32,488 bases of DNA from a virus: UHGV virus genome UHGV-0151217, one strand, 5' to 3'. Each line of letters starts with the position of its first letter. Position 1 is the first letter of the stretch. The notes below the pieces were generated by a model. That model did not search any database. It was not told the DNA's origin and worked only from the letters and a program-made list of their open reading frames with translations. Positions 1 through 31,008 of this stretch are shown here, one piece after another. A program made the translations under genes and the position numbers.

Positions 1-66
1 TTTCGCCGAGAGTTTAACTGGTCACCGCGTGATATTCGTCAGGGACGGGATGGTTTTCTGCAATAA
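1..66 (+). CDS. rhaS: L-rhamnose operon activator RhaS, extreme 3' end (gene begins upstream of window)
   Basis: Frame 1 reads [21 protein letters not shown] then TAA. This matches my recollection of the RhaS C-terminus, and it is followed 73 nt later by an RhaR N-terminus, as in the rhaSR operon. Confidence 0.75.
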
Positions 67-139
67 CGCGAATCTTCTCAACGTATTTGTACGCCATATT
101 GCGAATAATCAACTTCGTTCTCTGGCCGAGGTAGCCACG

Positions 140-277
140 GTGGCGCATCAGTTAAAACTTCTCAAAGATGATTTTTTTGCCAGCGACCAGCAGGCAGTCG
201 CTGTGGCTGACCGTTATCCGCAAGATGTCTTTGCCGAACATACACATGATTTTTGTGAGCTGGTGATTGTGGGGTAG
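140..277 (+). pseudogene. rhaR: rhaR 5' fragment, truncated by prophage insertion
   Basis: From GTG at 140 the frame reads [44 protein letters not shown], the RhaR N-terminus as I recall it. After ...ELVIV the frame runs into unrelated sequence and stops at 275-277, where RhaR should continue for ~240 more residues. Confidence 0.75.
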
Positions 278-427
278 TGATCAATTCTGGGCGGAGTTCG
301 TGCAGCCTGGTAGAACCTGCAAGCCTTGTGTGGCGCGGGGTATGGTGATTTAGTGTGATTCTGGGCGGATTTGTGAGAAATGACCAAAAGTGCCTTTTTT
401 TACGCTTTATTCTGGGCGCTTTTGATC
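278..427. repeat. Left-end array of three direct repeats (candidate transposase-binding sites, attL-like)
   Basis: ATTCTGGGCGGAGTTCGTG (284-302), ATTCTGGGCGGATTTGTG (357-374) and ATTCTGGGCGCTTTTGATC (409-427) lie within 150 bp of the host junction, arranged like the L1-L3 sites of a transposable phage. The sequence is not the Mu consensus. Confidence 0.5.
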
Positions 428-569
428 TGGTGGTGTAAGAAAGCGATCTCCTTTTAAAAGATTTTAAAACTCGTTTAAAAGATTCTAAAGCCCGTTCTAA
501 TCTTGTCTGATTTATTCCTTTCTTATCAGTTGTCGGTATTGGTTTTGTTGGATGTCGCTAGTTAGTTGG

Positions 570-1427: not shown

Positions 1428-1664
1428 ATGATGGTTAGAAATGAAGTAATGAACAAAGACTGGCACCGCGAGTACATCGTTGCCGCTGTGCACACCAAAG
1501 GTTTTACATTGCGTGAACTTTCTGAACGCGCTGGTCTAAAAAAAGACTCTTTAAAAAATGCACTGTATCGCTCATGCCCTAAATATGAACGCATCATAGC
1601 CGATGCTATTGGTGTGGAACCTGCGGAGATCTGGCCAAGCCGGTATGCCAGTAAGGCGGCGTAA
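1428..1664 (+). CDS. ner: Ner-like DNA-binding early regulator
   Basis: The 78-aa product contains DWHREYIVAAVHTKGFTLRELSERAGL...IIADAIGVEPAEIWPSRY, closely resembling the Mu Ner family. RBS AAGGGTAA. The stop overlaps the transposase start. Start may instead be 1449 (MNKDW...). Confidence 0.8.
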   Translation: MMVRNEVMNKDWHREYIVAAVHTKGFTLRELSERAGLKKDSLKNALYRSCPKYERIIADAIGVEPAEIWPSRYASKAA

Positions 1665-3706
1665 TGTTTTATTCAGCCAATGAGCTGGCCGGTCTTCCTC
1701 GTTTGCCCGGTACAGTTCAGGGGGTGCGATGGACGCTCAATCGGATCACAGAGACGCACCCGGAATGGAAGCGCAAGCGTGAAGGCACAAAAGCATTCGA
1801 GTATCACATCGACAGCCTGCCCGCTGAAGCGCAGAAAGTTTTACGTAAGCGCCTGACTCATCAGGTCCTGGAAGATGCACAACTGCCCGCCGTGGTTGAG
1901 CAGAAGGCAGTTAAAAACGTCGCCGTTCGCGATGAACTGGAAGTGATGGTCAAATGCCCGGAACTGGCATTACGCGAAGTCCAGGCACTGACCGACAAGC
2001 AAAAGGCCATTGCTGATGCGCGGATATTGCTGGCTACTGAAGTGCATAAACTGCGTGAATACGCCGGAATGACCAGGAAGGCCGCGTTAAAGCACATCGT
2101 TGATGGTGTGCGCATGGGGGCGTTACCTGACCGCATTATCGAAGCAGCGAATACTGCAAATGCACGTCAGGGAAAGCGAACCGGTGTCAGCACCGGCAGC
2201 CTGGATAGCTGGTACTCCAGCTGGGTGATGGCGCGCGGTGATGCCAATCAGTTACTGGCGTTACTGGCTCCCGGTCATCATAAGGGAACTCCGTGGGAGC
2301 AGGTCTGGTGGCTGAGCGATTTCTTTATGTTCTATCGCTCATGGAAGCGCCCGACCGTTGAATACGCTTATCGCGAGTTTTCAGCCTGGTGGCATGAGAA
2401 ACACGCGAATGATGCGGGAATGCTGGCGGCACTGCCTTCAGTTCACGCAGTAAGACGAGTGTTAAGCAGCGTCCCGGTGATTGTTAAGGAGCGTTTCCGC
2501 TCCACAGGTTCAGCCTGGCGTTCGCTCAATCCCTTTGTGCGGCGCGAGTGGACATCATTACCGGTTAATGCGGTATGGGTCGGGGATGGTCACTGTATGA
2601 AAATGACCGCGTTTAACCCCCTGACCGGCAATATTTTCCGGCCAGAAGTGACGCTGGTTATGGATGCGGGGCAGCGCTTTGTTGTGGGCTGGTCACTGTC
2701 CCTGTCGGAAAACGTGATAGCCGTTGCTGATGCGTTGCGTTACGGCATGGCACAGCACGGGATACCGCTGATTTATTATTCCGATAACGGGGGCGGCGAA
2801 AAAAACCGGGTGCTTGATGCCGATATTACCGGGATTCTGCCCCGGCTGGGTGTGGAGCATCACACGGGGATACCGGGTAACCCGCAGGGGCGCGGGGTAA
2901 TAGAACGGGCAAACAAAGGAATACCCAAAGACGTGGCACTGAGTTTCCAGACGTACTGCGCAAAGGATGCAGACAAGGAAACCGTAATGATGCAGCAACG
3001 GATTATGCAGTCGGCCATTAAGGCCACCCACAAAGGGAAAGAACTGACAAAACGGCAGGTTAAGGCGAGGGATGAAATCCCCACCTTTGAGCAACTGATG
3101 GCCGCCATAGAGCTGGAGGTCAGACGCTATAACAACCGGCCACACAGCAGCCTTCCCCGCAAAGAGGATGGCGAATATTACAGCCCGGCAGCGTATCGCC
3201 GGAAACTGATAAAAGAGCAGAATGTTGAAATTGATTTTCTGTCGCAGGAAGAACTGCATGAAATGTTCAGGCCGGAAGTGACGCGCAAAACATTTCGCGG
3301 GGAAATTCAGTTATTCAACAATATTTATTACTCGTATGAACTGGCCGCAGAGCACGGGAATGAAGTCAGGGTCAGTTACGATATTCATGACGCAAACAGT
3401 GTCATTGTCCGTCGGGCTGATGGCTCTTATATCTGCGATGCCATCTGGAACGGCAATAAGGTTGATGCCTTCGCTAAACCAGTTATCGAGCAAAAACTGG
3501 AGAAACGCGTCAGAGGCCGCATTGCACGGGCCACGCAGAAAATCGAAGAGGCTAAACGCGAGCTTACCCCGGCTATTACGCAGAAATCTGAGTTTAATTT
3601 TGGATTTGGTCTGGAGCGCCCGGAGAAAAAGGAAAAAGAAGAACTTTATTTATTCGCATCTGAACGCGAGCGCAATTTAAAGAAAAACGGCACAAACAAC
3701 CGTTAA
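1664..3706 (+). CDS. DDE transposase (MuA-like)
   Basis: 680-aa ORF immediately after ner with a TAATG stop/start overlap. Size and position match phage Mu transposase A. Confidence 0.85.
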   Translation: MFYSANELAGLPRLPGTVQGVRWTLNRITETHPEWKRKREGTKAFEYHIDSLPAEAQKVLRKRLTHQVLEDAQLPAVVEQKAVKNVAVRDELEVMVKCPELALREVQALTDKQKAIADARILLATEVHKLREYAGMTRKAALKHIVDGVRMGALPDRIIEAANTANARQGKRTGVSTGSLDSWYSSWVMARGDANQLLALLAPGHHKGTPWEQVWWLSDFFMFYRSWKRPTVEYAYREFSAWWHEKHANDAGMLAALPSVHAVRRVLSSVPVIVKERFRSTGSAWRSLNPFVRREWTSLPVNAVWVGDGHCMKMTAFNPLTGNIFRPEVTLVMDAGQRFVVGWSLSLSENVIAVADALRYGMAQHGIPLIYYSDNGGGEKNRVLDADITGILPRLGVEHHTGIPGNPQGRGVIERANKGIPKDVALSFQTYCAKDADKETVMMQQRIMQSAIKATHKGKELTKRQVKARDEIPTFEQLMAAIELEVRRYNNRPHSSLPRKEDGEYYSPAAYRRKLIKEQNVEIDFLSQEELHEMFRPEVTRKTFRGEIQLFNNIYYSYELAAEHGNEVRVSYDIHDANSVIVRRADGSYICDAIWNGNKVDAFAKPVIEQKLEKRVRGRIARATQKIEEAKRELTPAITQKSEFNFGFGLERPEKKEKEELYLFASERERNLKKNGTNNR

Positions 3707-3724: not shown

Positions 3725-4618
3725 ATGAGTTTAATTACGCAATTAAATGACGTAATGGCCCGTCGCGGCTATACGCAGACCCACGTCGCCCGTGCAATTG
3801 GTCGTAGCAGCGCCGTTATCAACCAGTATTTGCAGGGTAAATATCAGGGCGATATGGCTGATATTGAAGAACGCATTTCTGCCTTTGTGACCCGTGAGCG
3901 GGAAAAGGAAAACAGCCGCCGTATTAAAGCAAAGTTTGTGACCACCGGTATGGCTGCCAAAGGACTGGAGGTGCTGGCCTACGCTCACCTGGAATGTGAA
4001 ATCTGTGTGCTGTATGGCGCAGCTGGCCTTGGCAAAACAATGATTCTGCGTGAATACGCCGCCAGAAACCGGGATGCGGTCCTGATTGAGGCTGACCCAG
4101 GCTATACAGCCAGGACACTGCTTGAGGAGTTGTGCCGCCAGCTGGGGGTAAAGGTTCGCGGCAACATTCACGAACTGATTGATGCCTGTGTGCGCGAACT
4201 GCGTGATTCCGGTCGTCTGCTGATGGTGGACGAAGCTGAACTGCTCCCCTATCGCGCACTGGAGGTTCTGCGCCGTCTGCATGATAAAGCGGGTATCGGG
4301 GTTGTCCTGGCGGGTATGCCTCGTCTTCTGATTAATCTCAAGGGGCGTCGTGGTGAATTTGCGCAGTTATACAGCCGCGTGGCGCTGGCGCTTAACCTGG
4401 GCGACACGCTGGCGCAGGAAGATTTTAACCAGATAGCCACCGGGCTGATGCCGGAAGCAGCAGAACCGGAAATCAGCGAGGCGCTTTACGCGCGCTCGCT
4501 GGGTAATGCCCGCCGCCTGTTCAAACTGGCGCGCGGTGTGTACCGGATTTGCGATATCAGCGATGCGCCGGTCAGTGTGCAGGCCATAGATAAATTCGCA
4601 GAAATGTTAATTCACTGA
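3725..4618 (+). CDS. Transposition ATPase (MuB-like, AAA+)
   Basis: 297 aa with a Walker A motif (GAAGLGKT), a Walker B-like LLMVDEAE, and an N-terminal HTH-like segment. Directly follows the transposase. Confidence 0.85.
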   Translation: MSLITQLNDVMARRGYTQTHVARAIGRSSAVINQYLQGKYQGDMADIEERISAFVTREREKENSRRIKAKFVTTGMAAKGLEVLAYAHLECEICVLYGAAGLGKTMILREYAARNRDAVLIEADPGYTARTLLEELCRQLGVKVRGNIHELIDACVRELRDSGRLLMVDEAELLPYRALEVLRRLHDKAGIGVVLAGMPRLLINLKGRRGEFAQLYSRVALALNLGDTLAQEDFNQIATGLMPEAAEPEISEALYARSLGNARRLFKLARGVYRICDISDAPVSVQAIDKFAEMLIH

Positions 4619-9399: not shown

Positions 9400-9445
9400 C
9401 AGACCAAAACATATGTTTTGGTCTGCCAAAAATGATGTTTTGGTC
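9400..9445. promoter_or_regulatory. Operator-like site: 26-bp perfect palindrome plus a third half-site
   Basis: CAGACCAAAACAT|ATGTTTTGGTCTG (9400-9425) and a further GTTTTGGTC at 9437-9445, just downstream of an AT-rich -10-like stretch (TAATTAAATAAT) and directly upstream of ATG 9449. Confidence 0.4.
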
Positions 9446-9448
9446 ATT

Positions 9449-9727
9449 ATGAAGATTGAACAAATCGGAATGGCAGCTTTCAGGCAACAGGCTGAAAGCG
9501 GTGGCGTGGATGAGTTCGTCGTGCAGCGGTTCGGGGGTGTGTATCACCTCTTCGCTGTGAATCGCCGCGCCGGGGTGTCCTATTTTCTACAGGAACGCCG
9601 TGGCGATTACAAGACGTGGCTGTCTCTTGACCGTGCCGCCGCGTTCCTGTCGGGGATTGGTGTTTCACGTTTTACCGTGCGTTTTGAGGATAACAAACAT
9701 GCAGAAAAAGATGATCGGGGCCATTAA
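9449..9727 (+). CDS. Hypothetical protein (start uncertain)
   Basis: ORF open from 9413 with in-frame ATGs at 9413, 9449 and 9470 and no clear RBS. 3' end overlaps gemA by 29 nt. Confidence 0.4.
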   Translation: MKIEQIGMAAFRQQAESGGVDEFVVQRFGGVYHLFAVNRRAGVSYFLQERRGDYKTWLSLDRAAAFLSGIGVSRFTVRFEDNKHAEKDDRGH

Positions 9728-10207: not shown

Positions 10208-10675
10208 ATGCAGACCTTCAGTGAAACAGATCTTCGCGATGCGCAGGCACTGCTGCCCGATTCCGTGCAGCAACTGATTAGCGTGATTGGCTTCCCCGCC
10301 ATGACCCGGTTGATTCGTTCTTTTGGTGGCGTGACGTTAAGCGGTAAAACCGGCGCACACGCCGAACGTACTGGCGGTGTCCATGCCCTGTTACATGACG
10401 TGCTGACCGAAGACGAAATCAACAAACTGATCCGCTTTCTTGGCGGTGCTCCGTTTTACATTCCCCGTTGCGATCATGCGTTACGTGCTCTGCGTAACGC
10501 CCGTTTTATGGCTGATTTACAGCAGCATATCAGAGACGGATTTTCACACCGGCAGGCGCTGGCACTGCTTTGTCCCCGTTACGGGATTTCAGACCGGTAC
10601 GCATGGCAGCTGATACACCGACGACAAAAACAGACTTCGCTGAAAAGCCCCACCCAGGTGGGGCTTTTTGATTAA
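10208..10675 (+). CDS. Mor/C-family transcriptional activator of late (or middle) genes
   Basis: C-terminal LIRFLGGAPFYIPRCDHALRALRNARFMADL...YGISDRYAWQLIHRR aligns with the Mu Mor/C HTH region (...HLGGGQVYIPRG...). Which of Mor or C it corresponds to is unresolved. Confidence 0.8.
   Translation: MQTFSETDLRDAQALLPDSVQQLISVIGFPAMTRLIRSFGGVTLSGKTGAHAERTGGVHALLHDVLTEDEINKLIRFLGGAPFYIPRCDHALRALRNARFMADLQQHIRDGFSHRQALALLCPRYGISDRYAWQLIHRRQKQTSLKSPTQVGLFD
10646..10670 (+). terminator. Rho-independent terminator at the end of the Mor/C-family gene
   Basis: AGCCCCACC-CAG-GTGGGGCT hairpin followed by TTTTT, overlapping the last codons. Confidence 0.55.
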
Positions 10676-13172: not shown

Positions 13173-13913
13173 ATGCAAAAACAGATTATTGGTAACGCAA
13201 CGTTGTATTGCGGTGATGTTCTTGATGTGCTGCCGGCGTTATCCGAACGTTTTGATGCCGTCATTACCGACCCGCCTTACAGCAGTGGTGGTACACACAA
13301 ATCAGACCGCAGCATGGCCCCTTCGGACAAGTATATCGGTCACACCCAGTATGCCGAGTTCACCGGCGATAACCGCGACCAGCGCAGCTGGGCGTTCTGG
13401 TGTTCCATGTGGATATCTCATGCATTGCACAGGCTGAATTCCGGCGGTTATTTCATGGTGTTCAGTGACTGGCGACAACTACCGGCGCTTACAGATGCAT
13501 TTCAGGCCGGTGGTGTGCTGTGGCGTGGTCTGGTTGTCTGGGATAAAACGCAGGCTTCCCGTGCGCCACACACTGGCTATTTTCGGCATCAGGCCGAGTA
13601 TGTGGTCTGGGGCAGCAACGGAAAACTCGACAAATGCCCGCACGGTGGCCCGTTCCCGGGTGTGATTACGCAGCGTGTCGTCCCGTCCGAAAAACTGCAC
13701 ATGACCGCAAAGCCGGTTCAGCTGATGGCTGAGCTGGTTAAACCGCTGACACCGGATGCGCACGTCCTTGATCCGTTTATGGGAAGCGGCACTACCGCCA
13801 TCCCTGTACTTGCCCGTGGCGGACGGTTTACCGGCATTGAAATGACTAACCAGTATTTTGATATCGCCTGCGCACGAATCGAAAAAGCCCAGACAGAAGC
13901 AGTGCAGGTGTGA
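13173..13913 (+). CDS. DNA methyltransferase (amino-MTase, beta-class: N6-adenine or N4-cytosine)
   Basis: Catalytic motif IV DPPY (ITDPPYSSGG) near the N-terminus and AdoMet motif I (DPFMGSGTT) near the C-terminus. This order is typical of beta-class enzymes such as the CcrM/HinfI type. No adjacent restriction gene. Confidence 0.85.
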   Translation: MQKQIIGNATLYCGDVLDVLPALSERFDAVITDPPYSSGGTHKSDRSMAPSDKYIGHTQYAEFTGDNRDQRSWAFWCSMWISHALHRLNSGGYFMVFSDWRQLPALTDAFQAGGVLWRGLVVWDKTQASRAPHTGYFRHQAEYVVWGSNGKLDKCPHGGPFPGVITQRVVPSEKLHMTAKPVQLMAELVKPLTPDAHVLDPFMGSGTTAIPVLARGGRFTGIEMTNQYFDIACARIEKAQTEAVQV

Positions 13914-13914
13914 C

Positions 13915-15555
13915 GTGGCAAAACGTAAACTTTCCATTAAAGAGTTTCAGAGAAGCCTGCAGGAGTACATCGCCAACCTCCGCCAGACCATCGAGGCTGA
14001 ATGTCTGGGGTTCGATGTTAACCCGCAGGCCACACAGGCCCGCCGGGCGGCAGTCTGCGACCCGGTGACGGGCTACGATTATTTTGTCGAAAATTATTTC
14101 CCGCACTACGTCCGCAACCCGGCAAAAAGTGAGCTGCATAAATACCTGTTCAGCCGTCTGCCACAGGTTGTGGCAAGCCCGGACCCGGAGAACGACGCCA
14201 TCGCCGCGCCCCGTGGTGAAGCAAAATCCACGCTGGTGACTCAGCTGTTTACCCTGTGGACCATTATCCGGGCCATTAAGCATTACCCGGTCATCATTAT
14301 GGACAGTATCGACCAGGCTTATCCGATGCTGGAAGCCATCAAGGCTGAACTGGAGTTTAACCCCCGTTTAAAAAACGATTTCCCGGAAGTGTGCGGGCAG
14401 GGTCGCGTCTGGCGTATGGGGACCATCGTCACGGCCAACAATATCAAGGTGACCGTTGCCGGTAGTGGTAAAAAACTGCGTGGTCTGCGCCACGGCCCGT
14501 ACCGTCCTGACCTGGTTATCCTCGACGATATCGAGAACGACGAGATGGTGCGTAACCCGGAGCAGCGCGACAAGCTGCATGACTGGCTCACCAAAACCGT
14601 GATGCCGCTGGGCGAGGCTGGCGGTAAAACCGATATTATTTATATCGGAACCATCCTGCATTACGACTCCGTACTGTCGCGCACGCTGAATAATCCGATG
14701 TGGAAAACGGCCCGCTTTAAGGCCGTTATTCAGTGGCCTGCCAACATGAAGCTGTGGGACGAGTGGGAAGAACTCATCCGCAACAAACAGCCGGAAGCAG
14801 CGGAGGCACTTTACCGGCAGAACGAAGCCGACATGCTCGCCGGGTCGGTGGTGTCATGGGCGGCGCGTCCCCTGCTGGCGCTGATGAAAATCCGTGTCCG
14901 TGACGGTCACGACACCTTTGATTCTGAATACCAGAACGACCCGGTCAGCGGTGAAGATGCGCTGTTTGCGGGCTGCATTAAGTTCTGGGTTAACCGTCTT
15001 GATGAATGGGTGTTCTACGGCGCTGTTGACCCCAGTCTCGGGAAGAAGAATAAAAACCGCGACCCGTCGGCCATTCTCGTGGGGGGCTTTAACCGTTTTA
15101 CCGGCATACTGGATGTGGTTGAAGCCGATATCCGCCGGCGTCTGCCAGATAAACTTATCGAAGACGTGATTAAGTATCAGCGGGAATATCACTGCCTGTG
15201 CTGGTCGTTTGAGTCCGTTCAGTTTCAGGAGTTTCTGCGTACCGTGCTGGTTGAGCGTTCGGCGGCGCTGGGTGTGCCGGTTCCGGCGCTGCCGGTCATC
15301 CCGCTGGAGGATAAAGCGCTGCGTATCGAATCCCTTCAGCCGCATATGGCCAACGGCCTGATTCGTATCAGCCACACACATCAGACGCTGATTGACCAGC
15401 TGCGCCACTACCCCAAAGCCGACCACGATGATGGCCCGGACTGTCTGCACATGCTGTGGACGCTGGCGGTATCGCGCAGCGCAAAATTTCAGATACACAC
15501 CCCACGCAGCACCGGGCGTGACCGTGGCGGGCGTTTTGGTTCAGGAGGATGGTAA
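13915..15555 (+). CDS. Terminase large subunit (Mu gp28-like)
   Basis: About 546 aa from GTG 13915, immediately after the methylase stop (the ORF is open from TTG 13858). Walker A-like APRGEAKST and acidic nuclease-type motifs. Confidence 0.8.
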   Translation: MAKRKLSIKEFQRSLQEYIANLRQTIEAECLGFDVNPQATQARRAAVCDPVTGYDYFVENYFPHYVRNPAKSELHKYLFSRLPQVVASPDPENDAIAAPRGEAKSTLVTQLFTLWTIIRAIKHYPVIIMDSIDQAYPMLEAIKAELEFNPRLKNDFPEVCGQGRVWRMGTIVTANNIKVTVAGSGKKLRGLRHGPYRPDLVILDDIENDEMVRNPEQRDKLHDWLTKTVMPLGEAGGKTDIIYIGTILHYDSVLSRTLNNPMWKTARFKAVIQWPANMKLWDEWEELIRNKQPEAAEALYRQNEADMLAGSVVSWAARPLLALMKIRVRDGHDTFDSEYQNDPVSGEDALFAGCIKFWVNRLDEWVFYGAVDPSLGKKNKNRDPSAILVGGFNRFTGILDVVEADIRRRLPDKLIEDVIKYQREYHCLCWSFESVQFQEFLRTVLVERSAALGVPVPALPVIPLEDKALRIESLQPHMANGLIRISHTHQTLIDQLRHYPKADHDDGPDCLHMLWTLAVSRSAKFQIHTPRSTGRDRGGRFGSGGW

Positions 15556-17150
15556 TGGCACAGCTTGTTGATATTTACGGACGCCCGCTGAAACGTGAGG
15601 CACTCAAAACCACGCAGTCGGTCCGGGTGGCGGAACGGCTGCGCATTTATCCCGACCACCCGTCGCGTGGTCTGAACATCAGAAAACTGCCGCGCATTCT
15701 GGAAGCAGCCGAACGCGGTTATCTTCCGGCGCAGGCGATGCTGTTTGCGGATATGGAAGAACGTGACGGCCATCTGTTCGCCGAGATGGAAAAGCGCAAA
15801 AAAGCGTTGCTGACGCTGGACTGGTCGGTGGAGCCACCCCGCAATGCCTCGAAGGCTGAAAAGGAGCTGGCCGCCGCCGTGGATGAGTGGCTGCACGGTA
15901 TCCCGGATATGGAGGACATCATCCTCAACGGGATGAGCAGTGTCGGTTACGGTTTCAGCTGTCAGGAAATCAGCTGGGCGTTCGTGGACAAAACGTGGCT
16001 ACCGGATGCGGTAACGCTGCGACCGCATAACTGGTTTATTACCCTGCCGGAACACAATGACGAACTCCGGCTGGATGACGGCAACTGTGGGGAAGATGGT
16101 AAAGACGGTTCCGCGCTGTGGCCGTTCGGCTGGCTGGTTCATCGTTACAACGCCCGGTCGGGGTTCCTGGGTTCATCCGGCCTGTTCCGCGTACTGGTCT
16201 GGCCGTATCTGTTTAAAAACTTTGCGCTGCGTGATATGGCGGAATTTCTGGAGATTTACGGTCTTCCGGCGCGCATTGCCTACTATGCACAGGGCACCAG
16301 TGATGCTGACCGGGACAACATTCTCGAAGCCCTGGTCAATCTGGGCCATGAAGCGGTGGCAGCACTCCCTCAGGGTAACGAGATTGAATTCAAGGAGGCC
16401 GCCTCCGGCGGGCCGGAGGCGTTCATGTCGATGGTGGAATGGGCGGAGCGTACCACCTCAAAAGTGATCCTGGGCAGTACACTGACCAGTCAGGCCGACG
16501 GCAAATCCTCCACCAACGCGCTGGGTAATGTGCATAACGAGGTCCGGCACGACATTCTGACCGCCGATGCTCGCCAGCTGTCCGGCATGTTCAGTAGTCT
16601 GATACAGATGATGGCCAATCTCAACGGCTGGCAGGATATCCCACCGCGTCGCCTGCCACGTCTGGTGTTTGATGTGCAGCAGGAAGCCGACATTAAGAGT
16701 GTGGCAGAAGCCGTCAGCGTGCTGGTTAACAATGTGGGGATGAAGGATATCCCGGTGTCGTGGGTACGCCAAAAAACCGGTATTCCCACCCCGAAAGACG
16801 GCGAAGAGGTACTGGTGCCGGTAGCTCAGCGTCTCCCTGTGCAGGCTGGTCTCAGCCAGCTGCGTGAACGGCTGAATATTGCCGTGCTCAGTCAGCAGGA
16901 CAACGGGGAGGACGACCCGGCACAGCGCGCCATTGACCGGGCAGAACTTCCGGCAGAGGCCATTGCGCAGGGGATGAACGAACTGGTGGCACCTCTGGTG
17001 CAGGCCATACAGGAAGGTCGTGATGCAGATGAGGCCATGAACGTACTGGCGGAAGCCTGGCCGGAACTGCCGGATGACACGCTGCGGCAGTTGCTGACAC
17101 AGGCGTTCTTTGTGGCGGATATCTGGGGGAGACTGAATGCCGACAGCTGA
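15555..17150 (+). CDS. Portal protein (Mu gp29-like, DUF935)
   Basis: About 531 aa with RBS CAGGAGGA. Start overlaps the terminase stop. Alternative start 15549. Confidence 0.85.
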   Translation: MAQLVDIYGRPLKREALKTTQSVRVAERLRIYPDHPSRGLNIRKLPRILEAAERGYLPAQAMLFADMEERDGHLFAEMEKRKKALLTLDWSVEPPRNASKAEKELAAAVDEWLHGIPDMEDIILNGMSSVGYGFSCQEISWAFVDKTWLPDAVTLRPHNWFITLPEHNDELRLDDGNCGEDGKDGSALWPFGWLVHRYNARSGFLGSSGLFRVLVWPYLFKNFALRDMAEFLEIYGLPARIAYYAQGTSDADRDNILEALVNLGHEAVAALPQGNEIEFKEAASGGPEAFMSMVEWAERTTSKVILGSTLTSQADGKSSTNALGNVHNEVRHDILTADARQLSGMFSSLIQMMANLNGWQDIPPRRLPRLVFDVQQEADIKSVAEAVSVLVNNVGMKDIPVSWVRQKTGIPTPKDGEEVLVPVAQRLPVQAGLSQLRERLNIAVLSQQDNGEDDPAQRAIDRAELPAEAIAQGMNELVAPLVQAIQEGRDADEAMNVLAEAWPELPDDTLRQLLTQAFFVADIWGRLNADS

Positions 17151-18303
17151 CGATGTTGACCTGGGTTATGCGTACACCCTGAAACCGGAAGAAGCGATTA
17201 GGTATTTCGAAAGCAAGGGATACGTTATCGGCTTCCGCTGGCACGATGTGAGGGACATCGCCAGTGCCCGGGCGTTCACGGTGGCAGGCGTGCTGAAACT
17301 GGATGTTCTGAAGGATATCCGTGATGGCCTGACGACGGCACTGGCTGATGGCGGGACGTTCCGGGAGTTTGCAGCACAACTGGAACCACTGCTGGAATCA
17401 AAAGGCTGGCTGGGTAAAAAGCTGATTGTGGACGAGGACACCGGCGAACTGCACGGCAGACAGCTGACGCCGCGCCGGTTGCGCACGATATTTGATACCA
17501 ACATTCAGTCGTCCTACAACGCCGGACGTTATCAGCAGCAGATGGCGAACGTGGCTGACCGGCCTTATTTTGAGCGCGTGGCGGTGATGGACCTTCACAC
17601 CCGCCCGAAACACGCCGCCCTGAACGGTTTTACCGCCCGGGCGGATGATCCGGTCTGGGAGTATCTCTACGCGCCGGACGGGTACGGATGCCGCTGCCGT
17701 ATCCGGGCGCGTTCGGCGTCGGATGTGGAGAAATATGGCCTGACGGTGCAGAGCAGCGAGGGGCGGCTGGTTGAGGTTGAGCAGGAATATGGCCAGCCGG
17801 GCCAGACCATCAGAACGATGGGGCTGAAAATGCCGGACGGATCCGTGTATACCGCCGACCCGGGCTTTGGATTTAATCCCGGTCGGGTGGCATGGCAGCC
17901 GGAACTGGAAAAATATGATTACCGCAGCGCCCGCCAGTATGTCACCGGCACGCTGACCGGGCCGGATTTTGCCCGGGGACTGGCGAACGTCAGCGAACTG
18001 GATGCGCGCCAGCGATATCCGCTGGCCATCCGTTCACCGGAACAGGTCGCCGCCACGGGCGCTGCACGGCAGACGGTAAACCTTACGGCTGACGTCATGC
18101 AGCGCCTCAGCGCAGCAGACACGCCCCCGACCGCCGCCGACTATGCGCTGATGCAGCAGACCATCGAACGGGCGGAGCATGTCACGCAGGACGGTAACGC
18201 GTGGCGGTATGCGTTACAGTCAGGCGACCGCTGGTCGGTGGTGACGGTTGAGGATGGCACGCTGACAGACTGGGTGATGCAGGACACCCCGGAGGCATCA
18301 TGA
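17137..18303 (+). CDS. Head morphogenesis protein (Mu F-like)
   Basis: 388 aa with RBS GGGGAGA, overlapping the portal 3' end. Sequence is typical of the Mu F / SPP1 gp7 head morphogenesis family. Confidence 0.8.
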   Translation: MPTADDVDLGYAYTLKPEEAIRYFESKGYVIGFRWHDVRDIASARAFTVAGVLKLDVLKDIRDGLTTALADGGTFREFAAQLEPLLESKGWLGKKLIVDEDTGELHGRQLTPRRLRTIFDTNIQSSYNAGRYQQQMANVADRPYFERVAVMDLHTRPKHAALNGFTARADDPVWEYLYAPDGYGCRCRIRARSASDVEKYGLTVQSSEGRLVEVEQEYGQPGQTIRTMGLKMPDGSVYTADPGFGFNPGRVAWQPELEKYDYRSARQYVTGTLTGPDFARGLANVSELDARQRYPLAIRSPEQVAATGAARQTVNLTADVMQRLSAADTPPTAADYALMQQTIERAEHVTQDGNAWRYALQSGDRWSVVTVEDGTLTDWVMQDTPEAS

Positions 18304-20176: not shown

Positions 20177-20572
20177 ATGGATCGTAATACCCCCTATCGT
20201 GACGGCGAACTGAACCCGGTGCCGGTTGCCGCTGCGACCGAAATTTTTGGCGGTCATATGGTGGCCGTTAACGCATCCGGTTATGCCGTTCCGGCCAGTG
20301 CCACGGCCTCACAGATTACGCTGGGCGTGTCTGATGGCTGGGTGGATAACAGCAAGGGCAGCGATGGCGACGCCACCGTTCTGGTGCGTTGCGGCAAAGC
20401 CTTTCTGATGGCGAACAGCACCTCAGATCCGGTCACGCAATCGCAGGTCGGCAAGCTGTGCTACGTGGAAGACAGCGTGACCGTGGCAAAAACCGACAAC
20501 AGCAGCGCCCGCCCTGTCGCCGGGAAAGTGATCGGCATCGGTGACGATGGCGTCTGGGTTCATTTCAGTTAA
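20177..20572 (+). CDS. Small head protein (Mu Z position; possibly DUF2190-like structural/decoration protein)
   Basis: 131 aa with RBS AGGAGA, beta-rich Gly/Val/Ala composition, directly before the major capsid gene. Confidence 0.55.
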   Translation: MDRNTPYRDGELNPVPVAAATEIFGGHMVAVNASGYAVPASATASQITLGVSDGWVDNSKGSDGDATVLVRCGKAFLMANSTSDPVTQSQVGKLCYVEDSVTVAKTDNSSARPVAGKVIGIGDDGVWVHFS

Positions 20573-20582
20573 GGAGCGAAAC

Positions 20583-21491
20583 GTGTTAGTTAACGCTAAA
20601 AACCTCAACCAGATTTTTATCAATCTTAAGACCACCTATCAGAAAGCCTTCGACCAGACCCCCACTGACTGGCAAAAAGTGGCAATGGAAGTGCCATCAG
20701 GCAGCAAGGAGAACGACTACAGCTGGTTGAGTCGTTTCCCGAAAATGCGCGAGTGGGTCGGTGATAAAAACGTTAAATCTCTGGAAGCCTTCAACTACAC
20801 CATCCGCAACAAGGACTGGGAAGCCACGGTTGAAGTCGATCGTAACGACATCGAGGACGACCAGATTATGGGCTATGCCCTTCAGGCCAGAGACGCGGGC
20901 CAGTCAGCGGCAGAACTCCCGGCAGATATTGTGGCGTCCCTTATCAATAACGGTTTTACCAGTCCCTGTTACGACGGCCAGATGTTCTTTGATACCGACC
21001 ACCTGGTCGCCGGTAAATCGGTGTCCAACAAAGGCACCAAAAAACTCAAAGTGGGGTCGCTTGCTGAAGCAAAAGCCTCCTACGGTGCTGCCCGTACGGC
21101 CATGCGCAGTCTGAAAGATGACGAAGGCGCGTCTCTCAGAATCCGTCCGAATCTGCTGGTTGTGCCACCTGCGCTGGAAGATGACGCGAACTACCTGATG
21201 ACCGCCGAGAAGTTCCCGGACGGTACGCCGAACCCGTACCGCAACACCGCTGAAGTGCTGGTGATGCCGGAGCTGACGTCGGATTCTGCGTGGTTCCTGT
21301 TCGACACCTCCCGCTCGGTCAAGCCGCTGATCTTCCAGCAGCGTAAGAAACCGGTTTTTGTGGAGCAGACGGACTACAACAGCGACAACGTATTCATGCG
21401 TAAGAAGTTTCGGTTTGGTGCCGAAGCGCGCTGTAACGGCGGTTACGGCTTCTGGCAGATGGCATTTGGTTCTGATGGTACGACGGAGTAA
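20583..21491 (+). CDS. Major capsid protein (Mu T-like)
   Basis: About 302 aa from GTG 20583 with a strong RBS (AAGGAG, 6-nt spacing). The ORF is open from 20541. Position and size match the Mu major head subunit. Confidence 0.8.
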   Translation: MLVNAKNLNQIFINLKTTYQKAFDQTPTDWQKVAMEVPSGSKENDYSWLSRFPKMREWVGDKNVKSLEAFNYTIRNKDWEATVEVDRNDIEDDQIMGYALQARDAGQSAAELPADIVASLINNGFTSPCYDGQMFFDTDHLVAGKSVSNKGTKKLKVGSLAEAKASYGAARTAMRSLKDDEGASLRIRPNLLVVPPALEDDANYLMTAEKFPDGTPNPYRNTAEVLVMPELTSDSAWFLFDTSRSVKPLIFQQRKKPVFVEQTDYNSDNVFMRKKFRFGAEARCNGGYGFWQMAFGSDGTTE

Positions 21492-21494
21492 TGC

Positions 21495-21836
21495 ATGGAA
21501 AAGGTGATTGAAATTACCGCCCGCCGTGAGGGTTTTCGCCGCTGCGGTGTGGCACACAGCGCAACCACGAAGGCATGGCCTGCGGATGCGTTCACCCCGG
21601 AACAGCTGGCGGTGCTGAAGGCTGACCCCATGCTGATTGTGGTGGAGCGCGATAAAGCATCCGGCCAGAACGACGCGGCCCGGGGGGATGAACTGGCCGC
21701 ACAGCTGGATGCCGAGCGTCAGAAAGTCAGCGAACTGACAGCGCAGCTGGAAGAAGAACGCCAGAAAGTCAGTGAACTGACCGCACAGTTGAACGCCGCA
21801 CAGAAAACACAAAAAGCGGACAAAAAGGAGAAGTAA
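21495..21836 (+). CDS. Hypothetical coiled-coil protein with internal tandem repeat
   Basis: 113 aa with RBS GGAG. Contains QLDAERQKVSELTAQLEEERQKVSELTAQL, a duplicated heptad-like unit. Confidence 0.55.
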   Translation: MEKVIEITARREGFRRCGVAHSATTKAWPADAFTPEQLAVLKADPMLIVVERDKASGQNDAARGDELAAQLDAERQKVSELTAQLEEERQKVSELTAQLNAAQKTQKADKKEK

Positions 21837-22921: not shown

Positions 22922-23144
22922 GGCGGCTCCCGGGATGAAGTTCCCGATGGAGGATAACGCCCGGAAATACATCACTACGGAAGCGGTGACCGTTGAGAAC
23001 ACCGCTTATTACCGGCGCGCCGTTCAGGACGGTGACCTGATTCTGGTGAAGGATGAGTCTGAAGCCACCGTGACGGCTGAACAGGACGCCGTGCAGGTAA
23101 AAGCGAAGGTGAAGAAAGAGAAACAGGTGGGTTCCGATGAGTGA
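22902..23144 (+). CDS. Mu gp38-like small protein (DUF2635-like)
   Basis: 80-aa ORF overlapping its neighbours, with a Lys-rich C-terminus. Confidence 0.5.
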   Translation: MNKMKVKAAPGMKFPMEDNARKYITTEAVTVENTAYYRRAVQDGDLILVKDESEATVTAEQDAVQVKAKVKKEKQVGSDE

Positions 23145-24558
23145 AATTCAGTTTGACACCATTTCGGGCGGCATCCGTAAGCCCGGTGTGCATTTTGAAT
23201 TCAATACCCGGCTGGCCGTTAACACGCTGCCGGGTAATGAACAGCGTGTTCTGGTGATTGGTCCAATGCTGTCAGGCGGCACCGCCACGCCCCTGAATGC
23301 CGTTTCCGTGTATTCCGAAGACGAAGCGGATTTGTATTTCGGGGCCGGTTCGCTGGCCGCTGCAATGGCGCGCGCGGCCATTAATGCCAACAGCTATCTG
23401 CAACTGGATGTTATCGGTATTGCAGACACTGGCGCAGGAAAGGCAGCAACCGGCGCGGTTACCATCAACGGTACAGCAATCAGCAGCGGCACACTGTCGG
23501 TATGGGTTGCCGGTGAGCAGGTCACGGTGGATGTGGAAACCGGTGATGAACCGTCGAAAATCATTCCGGCACTGGTGGAAGCAATGGCGCAGACGCCCTC
23601 TCTTCTGGTGACGGGGGAATACAAATCAGAAACCTCTCAGCTGACGGTGACCACCCGGACCAAAGGTGCCTGGGGGAATGACATCACCCTGTCAGCGTCC
23701 ACCACGGCAGGTGGTCTGACCGTGAGCGCCACACCGATGGCGAACGGCGAAATGGACCCGGATATTCAGCCCGCACTGGATGCGGTCTTTGCCGCCGGTC
23801 ACAACATTCTGATTTGTCCGTTCAGTACCACGCCAGCCCTCGCCGCCCTGAAGCAGCATCTGGAGAAAACCGGGAACGCGATGGAACAGCGCGGCGCGAT
23901 TGGCTGTGCGGGCTGGACGGGCAGTCTCGGAAACGGGATCACCCTGGCAGCCGGTGTGAACAGCGGGCGCATGTCCGTCCCCTGGTATCGCGGCTCCGTG
24001 AAGCTGCCAGCAGTACTGGCTGCCATCTACGGCGCTGTGATGGCGGGCGAGGAAGACCCGGCACGTCCGCTGAACTCGCTGGCGCTGTCCGGGCTGGATG
24101 TGGTCGCCATGTCACAGCGTGAAAGCCGTAACGAGCAGGAAAACGCTCTGCATAACGGCCTGACGCCGGTTGAGGTTGGCCCGGGTAACACGGTGCAGAT
24201 TGTGCGTGCGGTCAGTACATACACGGTTAACGCACAGGGTGTGACTGACGTCTCGTTACTGGATATCACGTCCATCAGAACGCTGGACTACACCCGCAAG
24301 GCGTGCCGCGAACGCATCAGCCTTCGCTTCCCGCGCGAAAAACTCAGCACACGCACTATCGCAAAAGTGGAAAGCGAACTGTATGACGTGCTGATCAAGC
24401 TGGAGGAAGCGGAGATTCTGGAGAACGTGGAAGCGAATAAGGCAAAGCTGCGCGTTCAGCGAAACGGGAAAGATGCAAACCGTCTCGACTGCGTGGTTCC
24501 GGCGGATGTGGTTAACGGCCTGCATGTGTTTGCCGGTCGCATCGACATGATTTTGTAA
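23137..24558 (+). CDS. Tail sheath protein (Mu L-like)
   Basis: 473 aa. N-terminus ...RKPGVHFEF... and overall size are typical of contractile tail sheath proteins. Followed by the tube gene. Confidence 0.85.
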   Translation: MSEIQFDTISGGIRKPGVHFEFNTRLAVNTLPGNEQRVLVIGPMLSGGTATPLNAVSVYSEDEADLYFGAGSLAAAMARAAINANSYLQLDVIGIADTGAGKAATGAVTINGTAISSGTLSVWVAGEQVTVDVETGDEPSKIIPALVEAMAQTPSLLVTGEYKSETSQLTVTTRTKGAWGNDITLSASTTAGGLTVSATPMANGEMDPDIQPALDAVFAAGHNILICPFSTTPALAALKQHLEKTGNAMEQRGAIGCAGWTGSLGNGITLAAGVNSGRMSVPWYRGSVKLPAVLAAIYGAVMAGEEDPARPLNSLALSGLDVVAMSQRESRNEQENALHNGLTPVEVGPGNTVQIVRAVSTYTVNAQGVTDVSLLDITSIRTLDYTRKACRERISLRFPREKLSTRTIAKVESELYDVLIKLEEAEILENVEANKAKLRVQRNGKDANRLDCVVPADVVNGLHVFAGRIDMIL

Positions 24559-24570
24559 GGAGCCTGATAA

Positions 24571-24945
24571 ATGTCTCTGCATGAATACATTGGCTCGATT
24601 GTGCTGGAGGTGGACAGCCAGGAAATCGAGATCACCGACCTTGATGTTCAGATCAACACCGGGCGAAAACTGGTCAAGACCATGAACAAAACCGGCAGAG
24701 CCAAAGGCTTTGCCCGGGGCATTGGCACCTACGAATTGTCCGTTTCGGCGGTAATCCCTGATACCAACGAGCCGGACTGGGAAAACCTTGAAGGTGTGAA
24801 AATCTCGTTGTACCCGCTCAGTAAAAGCGGCAAGCGCACCTCCTATCTGGACTGCTTCACAACCGAAGTGGGTGAGAAATACACCGTCGATAATGAAGCG
24901 AAAATTGATATCAAACTGGCTGCACTCAGGAAGGTGACAGGATGA
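24571..24945 (+). CDS. Tail tube protein (Mu M-like)
   Basis: 124 aa with RBS AAGGAG, directly after the sheath gene. Confidence 0.75.
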   Translation: MSLHEYIGSIVLEVDSQEIEITDLDVQINTGRKLVKTMNKTGRAKGFARGIGTYELSVSAVIPDTNEPDWENLEGVKISLYPLSKSGKRTSYLDCFTTEVGEKYTVDNEAKIDIKLAALRKVTG

Positions 24946-25325
24946 CTTTGATTAATACACAGACCGGTGAACTGTCTGATGGCGTGGTGTTTAACGGCAC
25001 CGTTCATAAAAACTTTGAGCTGCGTCTGCCGGTCATGCGTGATAACGGGCAGGCACTGGAAGAAACTGAAGAACGCTTTCAGACAGTGGACGGCTTCGCG
25101 GCGGATTATTACTACCGCTGTGCAGTGATGGCGGCAACGCTGGTCCGTCTGGGGGATATCCCGCAGGAAGAACTGACGGCGGATTTGTTGCACGACAACA
25201 TGACGCCGGACGATTTTAATATTCTGCTGGCATCACGTAACGTCCTGAAGGTAAAGCGGAACGGCGGGAATCCCGGCTCGCCGGACTCCGGCTCGCAGTC
25301 CTTATCCTCGGGCGCTACGGAATAA
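24942..25325 (+). CDS. Tail assembly chaperone-like protein
   Basis: 127 aa with RBS AGGTGA. Acidic, and positioned between tube and tape measure as for lambda G / P2 E-type chaperones. Confidence 0.55.
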   Translation: MTLINTQTGELSDGVVFNGTVHKNFELRLPVMRDNGQALEETEERFQTVDGFAADYYYRCAVMAATLVRLGDIPQEELTADLLHDNMTPDDFNILLASRNVLKVKRNGGNPGSPDSGSQSLSSGATE

Positions 25326-25339
25326 CCGAAGATCAAATC

Positions 25340-25498
25340 ATGACCATGAGCCGTCCCGAGCTGGACGGCTGGCTTGCTGCCGTTGACAGGCTGAGCGGCG
25401 GCGGCTCAGGAAGGAAGGACACCTCACAGACCACCCGCCAGTCATTTAAATCCCTCAGGAAGAAACGCAGAAAAGGTAAGCAGAAAAATGGCCGGTAA
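25340..25498 (+). CDS. Small basic GpE-like tail protein (possible second part of a chaperone pair)
   Basis: 52-aa ORF, too short for the supplied ORF track: MTMSRPELDGWLAAVDRLSGG...KKRRKGKQKNGR. Overlaps the tape measure start. Confidence 0.35.
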   Translation: MTMSRPELDGWLAAVDRLSGGGSGRKDTSQTTRQSFKSLRKKRRKGKQKNGR

Positions 25499-27761
25499 TT
25501 TCAAAGTTGGCATGACCCTGACTGCGAAGGATGAAGCCTCGCAGGTTCTGGAAAAGGGACAAAAACAGGTTATCAAAGCCACCGAAGATGTAACAAAGGC
25601 AACACGGAAGGCAGGCGCAGAGCAGAGGCGTACCGGACAGGAAAGCGTTAACAGCACGAAAAAGGCCGCAAAAGAGATACAGCGTGCCGCCCGTGCCCGG
25701 GAAACGCTCGGTATTCGTGCAGAGCGTGAGATCCGGCGTGAAATTTATCTGACGGTTGCCAGTTATAACCGTCTGGCTCGTGCCGGTTTTGAATCTGCGC
25801 AGGAGCAGGAACGCGCCATGCAGGCCACCCGGGAAAAAGCCCGGGCACTCAAGCGTGAACTGGATGGCGTCACTCAGGCACAGATGAAGATGGCGAAAAC
25901 GCCTGTTATCCCCGAACCGGGGCGTTTTGCCCGTGCGGCTGCATTTGGCGGGAATGCCGTGACAACAGGCGCTGGTATCGCAGCAGGTGCTGCCATTATG
26001 GCGCAGCCGGTCAAAAAGCAGATGAGCTACGAACGCCAGCTGGCAATGATGGCCAATACCGCCTTCAGTGATAGCGGGCTGGAGGGGCGCAGGGCTGGTC
26101 TTGAGCAGATGAAAAACAGCATCCGTAACGCGGTGACCTGGGGTGGCGGCACGAAAGAAGACGCCGCCGAAACGCTGGATGCCCTGCTGAAAGATGGCGG
26201 TATTTCATTTGAAACAGCCAGTAAGTGGCTGCCTGAACTGATGAAATACGCCACGGCTTCCGGTGCATCAGCGACAGACCTGGCTAATGTGATGCTTAAG
26301 GGTAAAAAGACCTTTGGATTCAGGGATGAAGATATTTCCACCGTTCTGAATATGGCAATTGCAGCGGGCAAAGAAGGTAGCTTTGAACTGAGCGACATGG
26401 CCCGCTGGTTATCTTCGCAACTGGGGTCAGCGTCAGCTGCGGGGATGAGAGGCAAGGATGATTTTGTCAAGATTCTGGCGCTGAATGAAGCTGCCGCCAT
26501 CACGGCGGGAAGCAGTGATGAGGCCGGAAATAACGTGTTTAACCTGCTGGCTAAACTGACCAGCCACGATATTGAAACAGCGGCAAAGAGCATTGATTAC
26601 AACGGTAAAGGAATTGATTTTTCCGGCACGCTGGTTCAGGCGCGCGAACATGGGCTTGATCCGATAGATGCGCTGTCCAGTCTGATAGACAAAATCGTTG
26701 CCAGCGATAAACGCTTTCAGGAGTTGCAAAAGAAACTGGCCTCCGCCCGGGATAAAGGCGAGCAGACAGCTGTTTATGATTCGATGGCAAAACTCCTTGA
26801 AGGCTTTGGTGTCGGGAAACTGGTTGCAGACCAACAGGCGTTAAAAGCGTTGCTGGCTTACCGTAACAACCCTGAATACCGGAAAAAGGTTGAAGACGCG
26901 ATTAATCAGCAGCGCACCCTGCCGGAAGGTCAGCGCGCGGGTGATGTGGATTTTAAATTCATATCCGGCCTCAATGACTTTAAAACCGAACAGGCCAAAA
27001 ACACGCTTGAATTTTCACAAATGGACAGCATGAAAAAGCTGGCTGATGCGTCCGGTACTGTGGCCGATGCCATAAGCTGGGCGGGTGAAAAGTTTCCGGG
27101 ACTGACCACGGCAGTGGTGGGTGCCACGACCGCCATTGAAGCGATGACCGCAGCGGCTCTGACATGGGCCGGGATCAAAATCCTGACCGGGGGTAAAACC
27201 GGTGGCAAGGCTGGCGAGGTTGTCGGTGATGTAATTGAAAACACGGTCAAAAAAGGCAAAGGATTTAAATTCCCCGGCATTGCCGGTAGCCTGCTTTCTT
27301 TCGGTGGCACCGTTACGGCACTGGCCACCGCAACCAGCCCGGAAGAAGACGCCGCCGTCGAAGGAAGCGAGGAACGCTGGAAGCGCATCCGCGCCCGATA
27401 TCCCCAGGAAATCATCGATGCTGCCCGCAAAAAATACCAGCCGTGGTGGCAGTTTGGGGAAGGCTACTCCACCGAAAACGAAGAGTGGTTGAGGCGCTGG
27501 GAGGAAGACAGGAAAAAAGCCGCAGCTGATGCCCTGCCATCACCGGCGCAGGTCAACAAAGCCGCCGGAAACACAACGCCTGAATCAGTATCAACGCAAC
27601 CCGGACGCATCACCCAGCCGGGATACCTCACGCACTGGGGGCCACCTGCCAGCCCCATTAATTTCACCACACAACTGGTGCTCGATGGTCAGATTGTGGC
27701 GGAAGCAGTGAACAAATACAACCTTCAGGACGGTAACAGAGGCACGGGAGGAACTTACTGA
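25488..27761 (+). CDS. Tail tape measure protein
   Basis: 757 aa. Alpha-helical, Ala/Lys-rich N-terminus, Gly-rich segments, downstream of the chaperone genes. Confidence 0.85.
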   Translation: MAGNFKVGMTLTAKDEASQVLEKGQKQVIKATEDVTKATRKAGAEQRRTGQESVNSTKKAAKEIQRAARARETLGIRAEREIRREIYLTVASYNRLARAGFESAQEQERAMQATREKARALKRELDGVTQAQMKMAKTPVIPEPGRFARAAAFGGNAVTTGAGIAAGAAIMAQPVKKQMSYERQLAMMANTAFSDSGLEGRRAGLEQMKNSIRNAVTWGGGTKEDAAETLDALLKDGGISFETASKWLPELMKYATASGASATDLANVMLKGKKTFGFRDEDISTVLNMAIAAGKEGSFELSDMARWLSSQLGSASAAGMRGKDDFVKILALNEAAAITAGSSDEAGNNVFNLLAKLTSHDIETAAKSIDYNGKGIDFSGTLVQAREHGLDPIDALSSLIDKIVASDKRFQELQKKLASARDKGEQTAVYDSMAKLLEGFGVGKLVADQQALKALLAYRNNPEYRKKVEDAINQQRTLPEGQRAGDVDFKFISGLNDFKTEQAKNTLEFSQMDSMKKLADASGTVADAISWAGEKFPGLTTAVVGATTAIEAMTAAALTWAGIKILTGGKTGGKAGEVVGDVIENTVKKGKGFKFPGIAGSLLSFGGTVTALATATSPEEDAAVEGSEERWKRIRARYPQEIIDAARKKYQPWWQFGEGYSTENEEWLRRWEEDRKKAAADALPSPAQVNKAAGNTTPESVSTQPGRITQPGYLTHWGPPASPINFTTQLVLDGQIVAEAVNKYNLQDGNRGTGGTY

Positions 27762-30305: not shown

Positions 30306-30955
30306 TGTGGGACAAGGTTAATCAGCGCATACAGCAGGCACTGGCCACCGTTCGCCAGGCATTCAGGGTGGTGACCGGTACGGTGGACAGTTCGACCAAA
30401 GTACAGCTTCTCCAGCTGAACGGGCTGGCAGGCGAGCAGCTGGACGGTGCGGAGTATTTTCAGCATTACGGCCTCACCACATCCCCGCCGCCCGGCTCTA
30501 TGGGTATTGCCGTTCCGCTGAACGGTAATACCTCCCATACCGTCATCGTGGCCACAGAGCACGGCGCATATCGCCTGACGGAACTGAAACCCGGCGAGGT
30601 GGCCCTGTATACCGATGAAGGCGCGAAAATCGTACTGAAGCGCGGGCGGATTGTTGAAACCGAATGTGACGTTTACCGGGTGAAATGCAAACGCTATGAG
30701 GTTGAGGCAGAGGAGAACGCCGCATTCACGACACCGTTACTGACGGCCAGCGATAAGCTGACAGTGGAAGGTAAAATCACCGGCAGTGGTGGCATGGCCA
30801 TCAGTGGGGGCAAGAAATATGCCGCCACCTTTGAAGGCAACATCAACCATGTGGGTGGTGTGATTACCTCCGTTGACGTCACCGTTAATGGCATTAAAAT
30901 CGGAACGCACAAACACCCGACCCCACACGGCATGTCTGACACGCCGGTTAATTAA
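30302..30955 (+). CDS. Baseplate assembly protein V-like (spike; Mu gp45-like)
   Basis: 217 aa with RBS GGAGA and an ATGA overlap. OB-fold-like N-terminal region typical of gpV spikes. Confidence 0.7.
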   Translation: MMWDKVNQRIQQALATVRQAFRVVTGTVDSSTKVQLLQLNGLAGEQLDGAEYFQHYGLTTSPPPGSMGIAVPLNGNTSHTVIVATEHGAYRLTELKPGEVALYTDEGAKIVLKRGRIVETECDVYRVKCKRYEVEAEENAAFTTPLLTASDKLTVEGKITGSGGMAISGGKKYAATFEGNINHVGGVITSVDVTVNGIKIGTHKHPTPHGMSDTPVN

Positions 30956-30970
30956 GTGCTGAACACCCTC
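30956..30970 (+). promoter_or_regulatory. Conserved late-region motif, copy C (core GTGCTGAACACCCTC)
   Basis: The 15-mer is identical to the core of copy B. It lies 39 bp upstream of the gp46-like gene. Confidence 0.35.
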
Positions 30971-31008
30971 ACCTGATTCTGACCTGTCCATGCTGCCAGA
31001 CTGGCGGC

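Follow-up and report, generated by a model that had tools for sequence, protein, structure and literature searches.

The 32,488-nt stretch of DNA analysed here (UHGV virus genome UHGV-0151217; hereafter the window) begins in the Escherichia coli rhaSR locus and passes, inside the reading frame of rhaR, into phage-like sequence. The locus raises two questions, namely whether a Mu-like prophage transposed into rhaR, and whether this event deprived the host of its rhamnose response. In all likelihood, a complete or near-complete Mu-like prophage of ~35.7 kb transposed into codon 43 of E. coli rhaR, and the insertion was probably near neutral, with rhaS presumably already broken.

The two junctions in rhaR

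The left part of the window contains the following features. L023 and L024 denote two complete E. coli genomes with intact rhaR, the former being that of strain WP8-S18-ESBL-07.

1-66, plus strand: 3' end of rhaS, last 21 codons and stop codon (64-66), aligned to K-12 rhaS; 100% identical to L023/L024
140-267, plus strand: 5' part of rhaR, GTG start at 140-142, codons 1-42 and 2 nt of codon 43, from the mapped K-12 annotation
264-267, no strand: TGAT, left copy of a 4-bp target-site duplication; the right junction reads ...GTTACA, TGAT, TGTCTGG, and the empty site (L023) has one TGAT
268-283, plus strand: left phage terminus TGTGGGGTAGTGATCA (TG end), conserved at 11 insertion sites

As far as the junction, the rhaR 5' part matches the intact L023 gene at every position (100% identity), and positions 1-270 as a whole are 100% identical to L023 at rhaSR. 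The two sequences diverge at position 271, where L023 continues with CTGGCGCGG and the window with GGGGTAGTG; in the window the interrupted frame reads ...CELVIV, Gly and a TAG stop codon (275-277; ORF 29-277). Because the phage left end at unrelated loci of other genomes always starts with TGTGGGGTAGTG, the true host/phage junction lies between 267 and 268, and bases 268-270 (TGT) are coincidentally alike in host rhaR and phage. An earlier, sequence-only reading of this DNA had the host part reading cleanly to ~271. Its rhaS and rhaR assignments are borne out (100% identity to L023), but its boundary is three nucleotides late, because TGT at 268-270 is the same in host and phage. The alignment to a reference rhaSR locus that it proposed places the divergence of uninterrupted L023 rhaR at the junction, with no unbroken continuation past 272.

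The right junction was found outside the window. An exact-protein look-up with a 75-residue rhaR stub ORF (ATG at position 50) returned contig NODE_33 (71,166 nt) of ENA assembly ERZ773421 and Logan assembly SRR5091543, while look-ups with 45-aa and 82-aa versions of the stub gave no matches. The window and NODE_33 have 0 mismatches over their 10,277-nt overlap. The insertion model was then used to predict the protein at the right junction, a 241-aa truncated RhaR, and this protein (starting MIVWRGNG) was found in the same two sources, on contigs ERZ773421 NODE_27 and SRR5091543_18119, both of which begin inside the phage. On NODE_27 the junction reads GAAGTTACA, TGAT, TGTCTGGCGCGG, corresponding to the phage right end, the duplicated TGAT and the rest of rhaR. 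In a longer read of both contigs, ...CAGCCCAGAAAAAATCGCGAAGTTACA is followed by TGAT and TGTCTGGCGCGGTAATGG, then by the rest of rhaR, rhaT and sodA, and in both the phage right end ...CCCAGAAAAAATCGCGAAGTTACA precedes TGAT. The rhaR 3' part and a target duplication, which the sequence-only reading had expected at the right prophage end, are thus present in the same assembly as the left junction. Together with the divergence of the reference at the left junction, this places the prophage inside rhaR.

L023 and L024 match every base of the 3,178-nt left flank and the 1,870-nt right flank (100% identity), and the locus is restored exactly once the phage and one copy of TGAT are taken out. The rhaSR synteny is likewise preserved, with rhaBAD upstream on NODE_33 and rhaT and sodA downstream on NODE_27. 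NODE_33 ends and NODE_27 starts inside the last phage gene, and no one contig spans the prophage. Comparison with a 35,217-bp copy in strain 54214 gives a gap of ~0.6 kb and a prophage length of ~35.7 kb. The last phage gene (351 aa, hypothetical; 20840-21895 in L004, 1-381 in NODE_27/L025) is partly repeated, at up to four places per E. coli genome, and this repetition accounts for the assembly gap. The two junctions are probably adjacent on one molecule, since the target site reconstitutes exactly. ERZ773421 and SRR5091543 may both have been assembled from one set of reads. The source material may be a metagenome, in which case a subpopulation with intact rhaR is possible.

The rhaR-phage junction occurs in 0 of 5,426 complete E. 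coli genomes. A 34-mer across the left junction had no match in the viral_contigs or genome_contigs collections, and a flexible right-junction pattern had none in genome_contigs, so the source is neither an IMG/VR contig nor the representative of a GTDB species. No description of a phage in rhaR was found in the literature.

The rhamnose regulon before and after the insertion

Cleavage of rhaR in codon 43 leaves a 45-codon 5' stub (44 native residues and Gly) followed by a stop codon. On the other side, the ...ACA/TGAT junction creates an in-frame ATG by chance, which opens a 241-codon ORF consisting of Met and RhaR residues 43-282 (NODE_27/L025 483-1213). The effector-binding domain is incomplete at its start in this ORF, no promoter is evident, and RhaR is thus probably inactivated.

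In the rhamnose cascade, RhaR activates rhaSR, and RhaS directly activates rhaBAD and rhaT. The source carries a second lesion in this cascade. Specifically, rhaS contains a frameshifting 25-bp tandem duplication (GTTGCACAGATGGAACAGCAGGAAG twice) at NODE_33/L021 9538-9587, upstream of the window, which puts translation out of frame from about residue 135 onwards and leads to a stop at about residue 146 of 278. The duplication is present in both source assemblies and in three complete genomes, the latter counted by a search with a 44-mer specific to the duplication junction. In the two of these that were inspected (L023 and L024), the RefSeq annotation gives an intact rhaR and a 'frameshifted' rhaS. 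To our knowledge, Mu-type prophages essentially never excise precisely. Because the duplication is found with intact rhaR and such prophages do not excise precisely, the most likely order, on grounds of parsimony, is rhaS duplication first and phage insertion second. The phage thus most likely entered an already disabled rhamnose regulon, and its insertion was probably close to neutral, as rhaBAD and rhaT are activated directly by RhaS, the frameshifted regulator. Over the RhaS C-terminal domain a 148-aa ORF is called, and a restart product from this region might keep some activity.

It is unlikely that the insertion was instead the primary cause of a rhamnose-negative phenotype, with the rhaS lesion a later decay or harmless. 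RhaR is required for rhaSR induction, and a rhaR frameshift alone makes rhamnose fermentation delayed and weak (PMC10132054). However, the same rhaS duplication occurs in three complete genomes whereas the rhaR-phage junction occurs in none of the 5,426, L023 and L024 combine intact rhaR with flanks identical to those of the source, the imprecise excision of Mu-type prophages makes the duplication most likely the earlier event, and the frameshift by itself truncates RhaS at about half its length. The sequence-only reading had proposed that the host would lose the normal rhamnose cascade through this insertion. Its premise, a split rhaR, is correct, but the phenotypic inference is weakened, with rhaS probably frameshifted beforehand.

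Loss of RhaR or RhaS is also known from other wild E. coli lineages, namely STEC CC119 and O26:H11, in which the fermentation of rhamnose is delayed or absent, and a rhaS frameshift was identified in rhamnose-negative O26:H11 (PMC10132054). The lesions there are 1-bp indels, in contrast to the 25-bp rhaS tandem duplication and the rhaR prophage found here.

Ends, gene content and kinship of the prophage

The phage part of the window contains the following features, identified by a repeat search (L1-L3) or by Pfam, PHROG and comparison with relatives.

268-32488, plus strand: Mu-like transposable prophage, from the left terminus to the baseplate genes; same element at other E. coli loci, Pfam, PHROG
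284-298, plus strand: repeat L1 (ATTCTGGGCGGAGTT), presumed transposase-binding site
358-372, plus strand: repeat L2
409-423, plus strand: repeat L3
598-1245, minus strand: repressor with CI-type HTH, 215 aa (PF07022, phrog_3037)
1428-1664, plus strand: Ner-like early regulator, 78 aa (PF13693, phrog_769)
1664-3706, plus strand: MuA-type DDE transposase, 680 aa (PF02316, rve, PF09299; phrog_310, E=3e-193)
3725-4618, plus strand: MuB-like AAA+ transposition ATPase, 297 aa (AAA_22, TniB; phrog_296 'DNA transposition protein')
10208-10675, plus strand: Mor-type late activator (phrog_836; Mor annotated in relatives)
13858-18303, plus strand: terminase large subunit, Mu-type portal (DUF935) and Mu F-like head morphogenesis protein (Pfam, PHROG, relatives)
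20541-21491, plus strand: Mu gpT-type major head protein (phrog_371; RefSeq annotation of relatives)
23137-32438, plus strand: contractile tail, with sheath, tape measure, DNA circularization protein and baseplate proteins (Pfam, PHROG, relatives)

Because the window stops inside the baseplate genes, it does not contain the phage right end, and the right-hand ~3.5 kb of the prophage lies outside it. Rfam and tRNA scans of the window gave no matches.

The arrangement of three direct repeats followed by a repressor, noted from the letters alone, is confirmed. Exact copies of ATTCTGGGCG begin at 284, 358 and 409, with no other exact copy in 32.5 kb (0.08 expected by chance; three copies reached in 0 of 100 shuffles), and the repeats can be extended to 15 nt. 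They are followed by the CI-type repressor ORF on the minus strand. The right end carries two inverted copies of the repeat and one in the opposite orientation, and the motif TTCTGGG begins at nt 18 from the terminus at both phage ends (L1 and R1). The termini, TGTGGGG... and ...GTTACA, are thus TG...CA ends with repeated putative transposase-binding sites at both ends. At 453-496, between L3 and the repressor gene, whose 3' end faces L3, a 21-nt unit (TTTAAAAGATTYTAAARCYCG) is repeated in tandem (2.1 copies). The repeat contains palindromes and is overlapped by two weak minus-strand promoter-like matches.

The transposase contains a Mu N-terminal DNA-binding domain, an integrase core (PF00665, below its cut-off) and a Mu transposase C-terminal domain. 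Residues D308 and D374 align with MuA D269 and D336, and the third catalytic residue is probably E414 in the motif GVIER. The MuB-type ATPase gene lies directly downstream. The morphogenesis module is also of Mu type, comprising the portal (gp29/DUF935; Portal_Mu, E=2e-95), F (Phage_Mu_F matched), a protease-scaffold protein and gpT, and is accompanied by the Mor-type late activator. With the transposase, ATPase, Ner, Mor, portal, F and gpT genes all present, the identification of this DNA as a transposable phage holds.

Several smaller features were also observed. A DNA methyltransferase gene at 13173-13913, between a DUF1804 gene and terL, is present in the relatives in 160-11H1 and E2348/69 and absent from those in STEC346 and tcmA_3, so it is a variable cargo gene. 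A 22-nt unit (1.9 copies) with palindrome CCAAAACATATGTTTTGG is located at 9404-9445, at the start of ORF 9413-9727, and could be a regulator binding site. ORF 21495-21836, immediately after the major head gene, encodes an HI1506-related protein and contains a 42-nt in-frame tandem repeat (2.4 copies) at 21690-21788.

The phage shares with Mu (Muvirus mu, NC_000929) the layout of leftward repressor, Ner, A and B, the TG...CA termini, three transposase-site repeats at the left end, a right end with two inverted copies and one of opposite orientation, Mor, portal/F/gpT heads, a contractile tail and near-random insertion. Unlike Mu, it has a CI-type repressor, a 4-bp rather than 5-bp target duplication and no DNA similarity. 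Specifically, identity to the Mu counterparts is 23% for the transposase (MuA) and 32% for the ATPase (MuB), the repressor has no similarity to Mu c, and a megablast search of 50,697 phage records with a 23.7-kb query detected no similarity to Mu DNA, its sole matches being two (169 nt) to two other Escherichia phages. A Mu-type com/mom module was not found; the methyltransferase gene before terL is present instead. The earlier view that the phage is not Mu itself is therefore upheld by the transposase, the repressor and the DNA comparison, and phage Mu or any member of the genus Muvirus was rejected because of the missing nucleotide match, the 23% identity of A and the 4-bp duplication.

A B3-like phage (Tn552-type transposase) was rejected as well, on the basis of the 4-bp duplication and the MuA-specific Pfam domains; the closest transposases of B3/D3112-type Pseudomonas phages are ~30% identical, and B3-like phages have a 6-bp target duplication according to PMC8705779. 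The nearest phage transposases are those of Pseudomonas phage VW-6B (49%), Klebsiella phage ST405-OXA48phi1.1 (46.5%) and Yersinia phage Tongde (45%), followed by Sp18-like STEC phages (43%) and by Mannheimia phage 3927AP2 and Haemophilus phage SuMu (40%). The prophage belongs to a family without a close relative among sequenced phage isolates.

The Sp18-like Mu-like phages of STEC (LC727881, in an Stx2c phage; Nakamura et al. 2023, PMC10132054) are also transposable prophages of E. coli and likewise insert into genes and other prophages. They differ from the phage described here in the transposase (43% identical), in the end sequences and in one terminus, ...TATA instead of ...ACA. Within the depositors' limits of LC727881, the terminus opposite the transposase reads ...GCTATA, not CA (L036 1678-1690), and the Sp18-like phage of this record would be a TG...TA element.

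Within E. coli the family is common. The tail region was matched in 59 of 5,426 complete genomes (~1%), and the exact repressor protein was found in 514 data blocks with varied neighbours. In other genomes the element is also located at caiF/carB, yfcC, uspA/dtpB, eutC, rhs and other sites, including the trg-ydcA, melR-melA and agaF-agaE intervals. Insertion is seen at many unrelated sites, 11 of them with both ends read and many more as left-flank contexts. The left 1 kb is 99.9-100% identical in strains 54214, 160-11H1 and RIVM_C036569. The prophage at ~2715944-2751670 of EPEC O127:H6 E2348/69 (NC_011601.1), which splits eutC, belongs to the same family; it is alike in the left 1 kb (~86% identity), the TGTGGGGTAGTG...GAAGTTACA termini, the gene order, the length (35.7 kb), a 4-bp duplication (CACT) and the inactivation of a catabolic gene by insertion, and differs in the insertion site and in mosaic accessory early genes and tail-fibre region. 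In JNE21-009 (NZ_AP041814.1, ~1143500-1178770), a family member is nested in another Mu-like prophage, between the DNA circularization and baseplate genes of the latter.

Target duplication and mode of entry

The target duplication of phage Mu is 5 bp, and a 5-bp duplication had been expected at the rhaR insertion. The duplication is instead 4 bp. We read 11 end pairs of the family with termini TGT...ACA, and all 11 have a 4-bp duplication together with these constant termini:

window (rhaR): TGAT
54214: ACTT
RIVM_C036569: CGGT
JNE21-009: CGAA
48956: CCCT
160-11H1: GACA
E2348/69: CACT
GPEC349-628: TTTG
tcmA_3: GAGA
STEC346: AGTA
STEC316: CCCT

Under a 5-bp model, in which the phage would end in ...GTTAC, the fifth base matches in 5 of the 11 pairs and fails in 6, because this base is always A on the right and variable on the left. 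Only when this A is assigned to the phage do the ends line up in register, giving the termini TGT...ACA. A left end shifted by one base and a 6-bp duplication of the form ANNNNT were both ruled out by the junctions of 54214 and the window. As a control, the Mu prophage in E. coli W was read in the same way and gave 5 bp (GCCGC).

The insertion into rhaR would have proceeded by the Mu-type pathway. Specifically, the MuA-type DDE transposase and the MuB-type ATPase would have joined the TG...CA termini to target cuts staggered by 4 bp, and repair of the staggered cuts would then have duplicated TGAT. The insertion split rhaR into the 5' stub and the 3' part, in a host in which the rhamnose regulon was presumably already disabled by the rhaS duplication when the phage arrived.

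We consider it unlikely that the element is a defective, immobile remnant, or that it entered by site-specific or homologous recombination. The last ~3.5 kb lies beyond the window and some relatives have pseudogenised tail-fibre genes, but the early and structural ORFs of the window are all intact and of full length compared with relatives, near-identical copies are present in unrelated strains, and a 4-bp duplication accompanies each of at least 11 different insertion sites. Against site-specific entry, no tyrosine integrase or att-type site was found; a few ORFs of the tail-fibre region are labelled 'integrase' by RefSeq in relatives. Although the source is a short-read, SPAdes-style contig of ~17x coverage and the junction is in no complete RefSeq E. 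coli genome, an assembly chimera, in which the rhaSR-phage junction would be a mis-join and rhaR intact in the organism, is very unlikely, given that both junctions occur in two differently built assemblies, that the reciprocal right junction carries the expected duplicated TGAT, that joining the flanks restores every base of the empty site, and that the position of the junction coincides exactly with the conserved terminus of the phage.

Transposition of a Mu-like prophage into rhaR, with a 4-bp scar, thus remains by far the preferred explanation. According to PMC8705779, the recognisable scar measures 5 bp in the case of Mu and 6 bp in that of B3, and no discussion of a 4-bp duplication for Mu-like phages was found in the literature. 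The 4-bp scar is nevertheless not wholly new, because GenBank LC727881, the Sp18-like phage, already carries a depositors' annotation of a 4-bp 'duplication due to insertion of Mu' (GATG), with which its junctions agree. We tentatively suggest that E. coli has at least two MuA-related transposable prophage lineages with 4-bp duplications, the E2348/69 type and the Sp18 type, and that these are natural shorter-stagger variants of the Mu transpososome; this is quite possible, if somewhat less than probable.

For rhamnose metabolism the significance of the insertion is small. The locus is a case of natural gene disruption by a transposable phage documented by recovery of the empty site, the target duplication and the junctions on either side, and it illustrates that a phage insertion can seem to be the cause of the loss of a pathway already broken by an earlier mutation. 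It is also relevant to annotation, as it represents a common E. coli prophage family with a 4-bp rather than 5-bp scar and no close sequenced isolate. If the two 4-bp lineages are real, prophage finders that seek 5- or 6-bp scars would misplace their ends, and such prophages could help explain target-cut spacing in DDE transposases and integrases.
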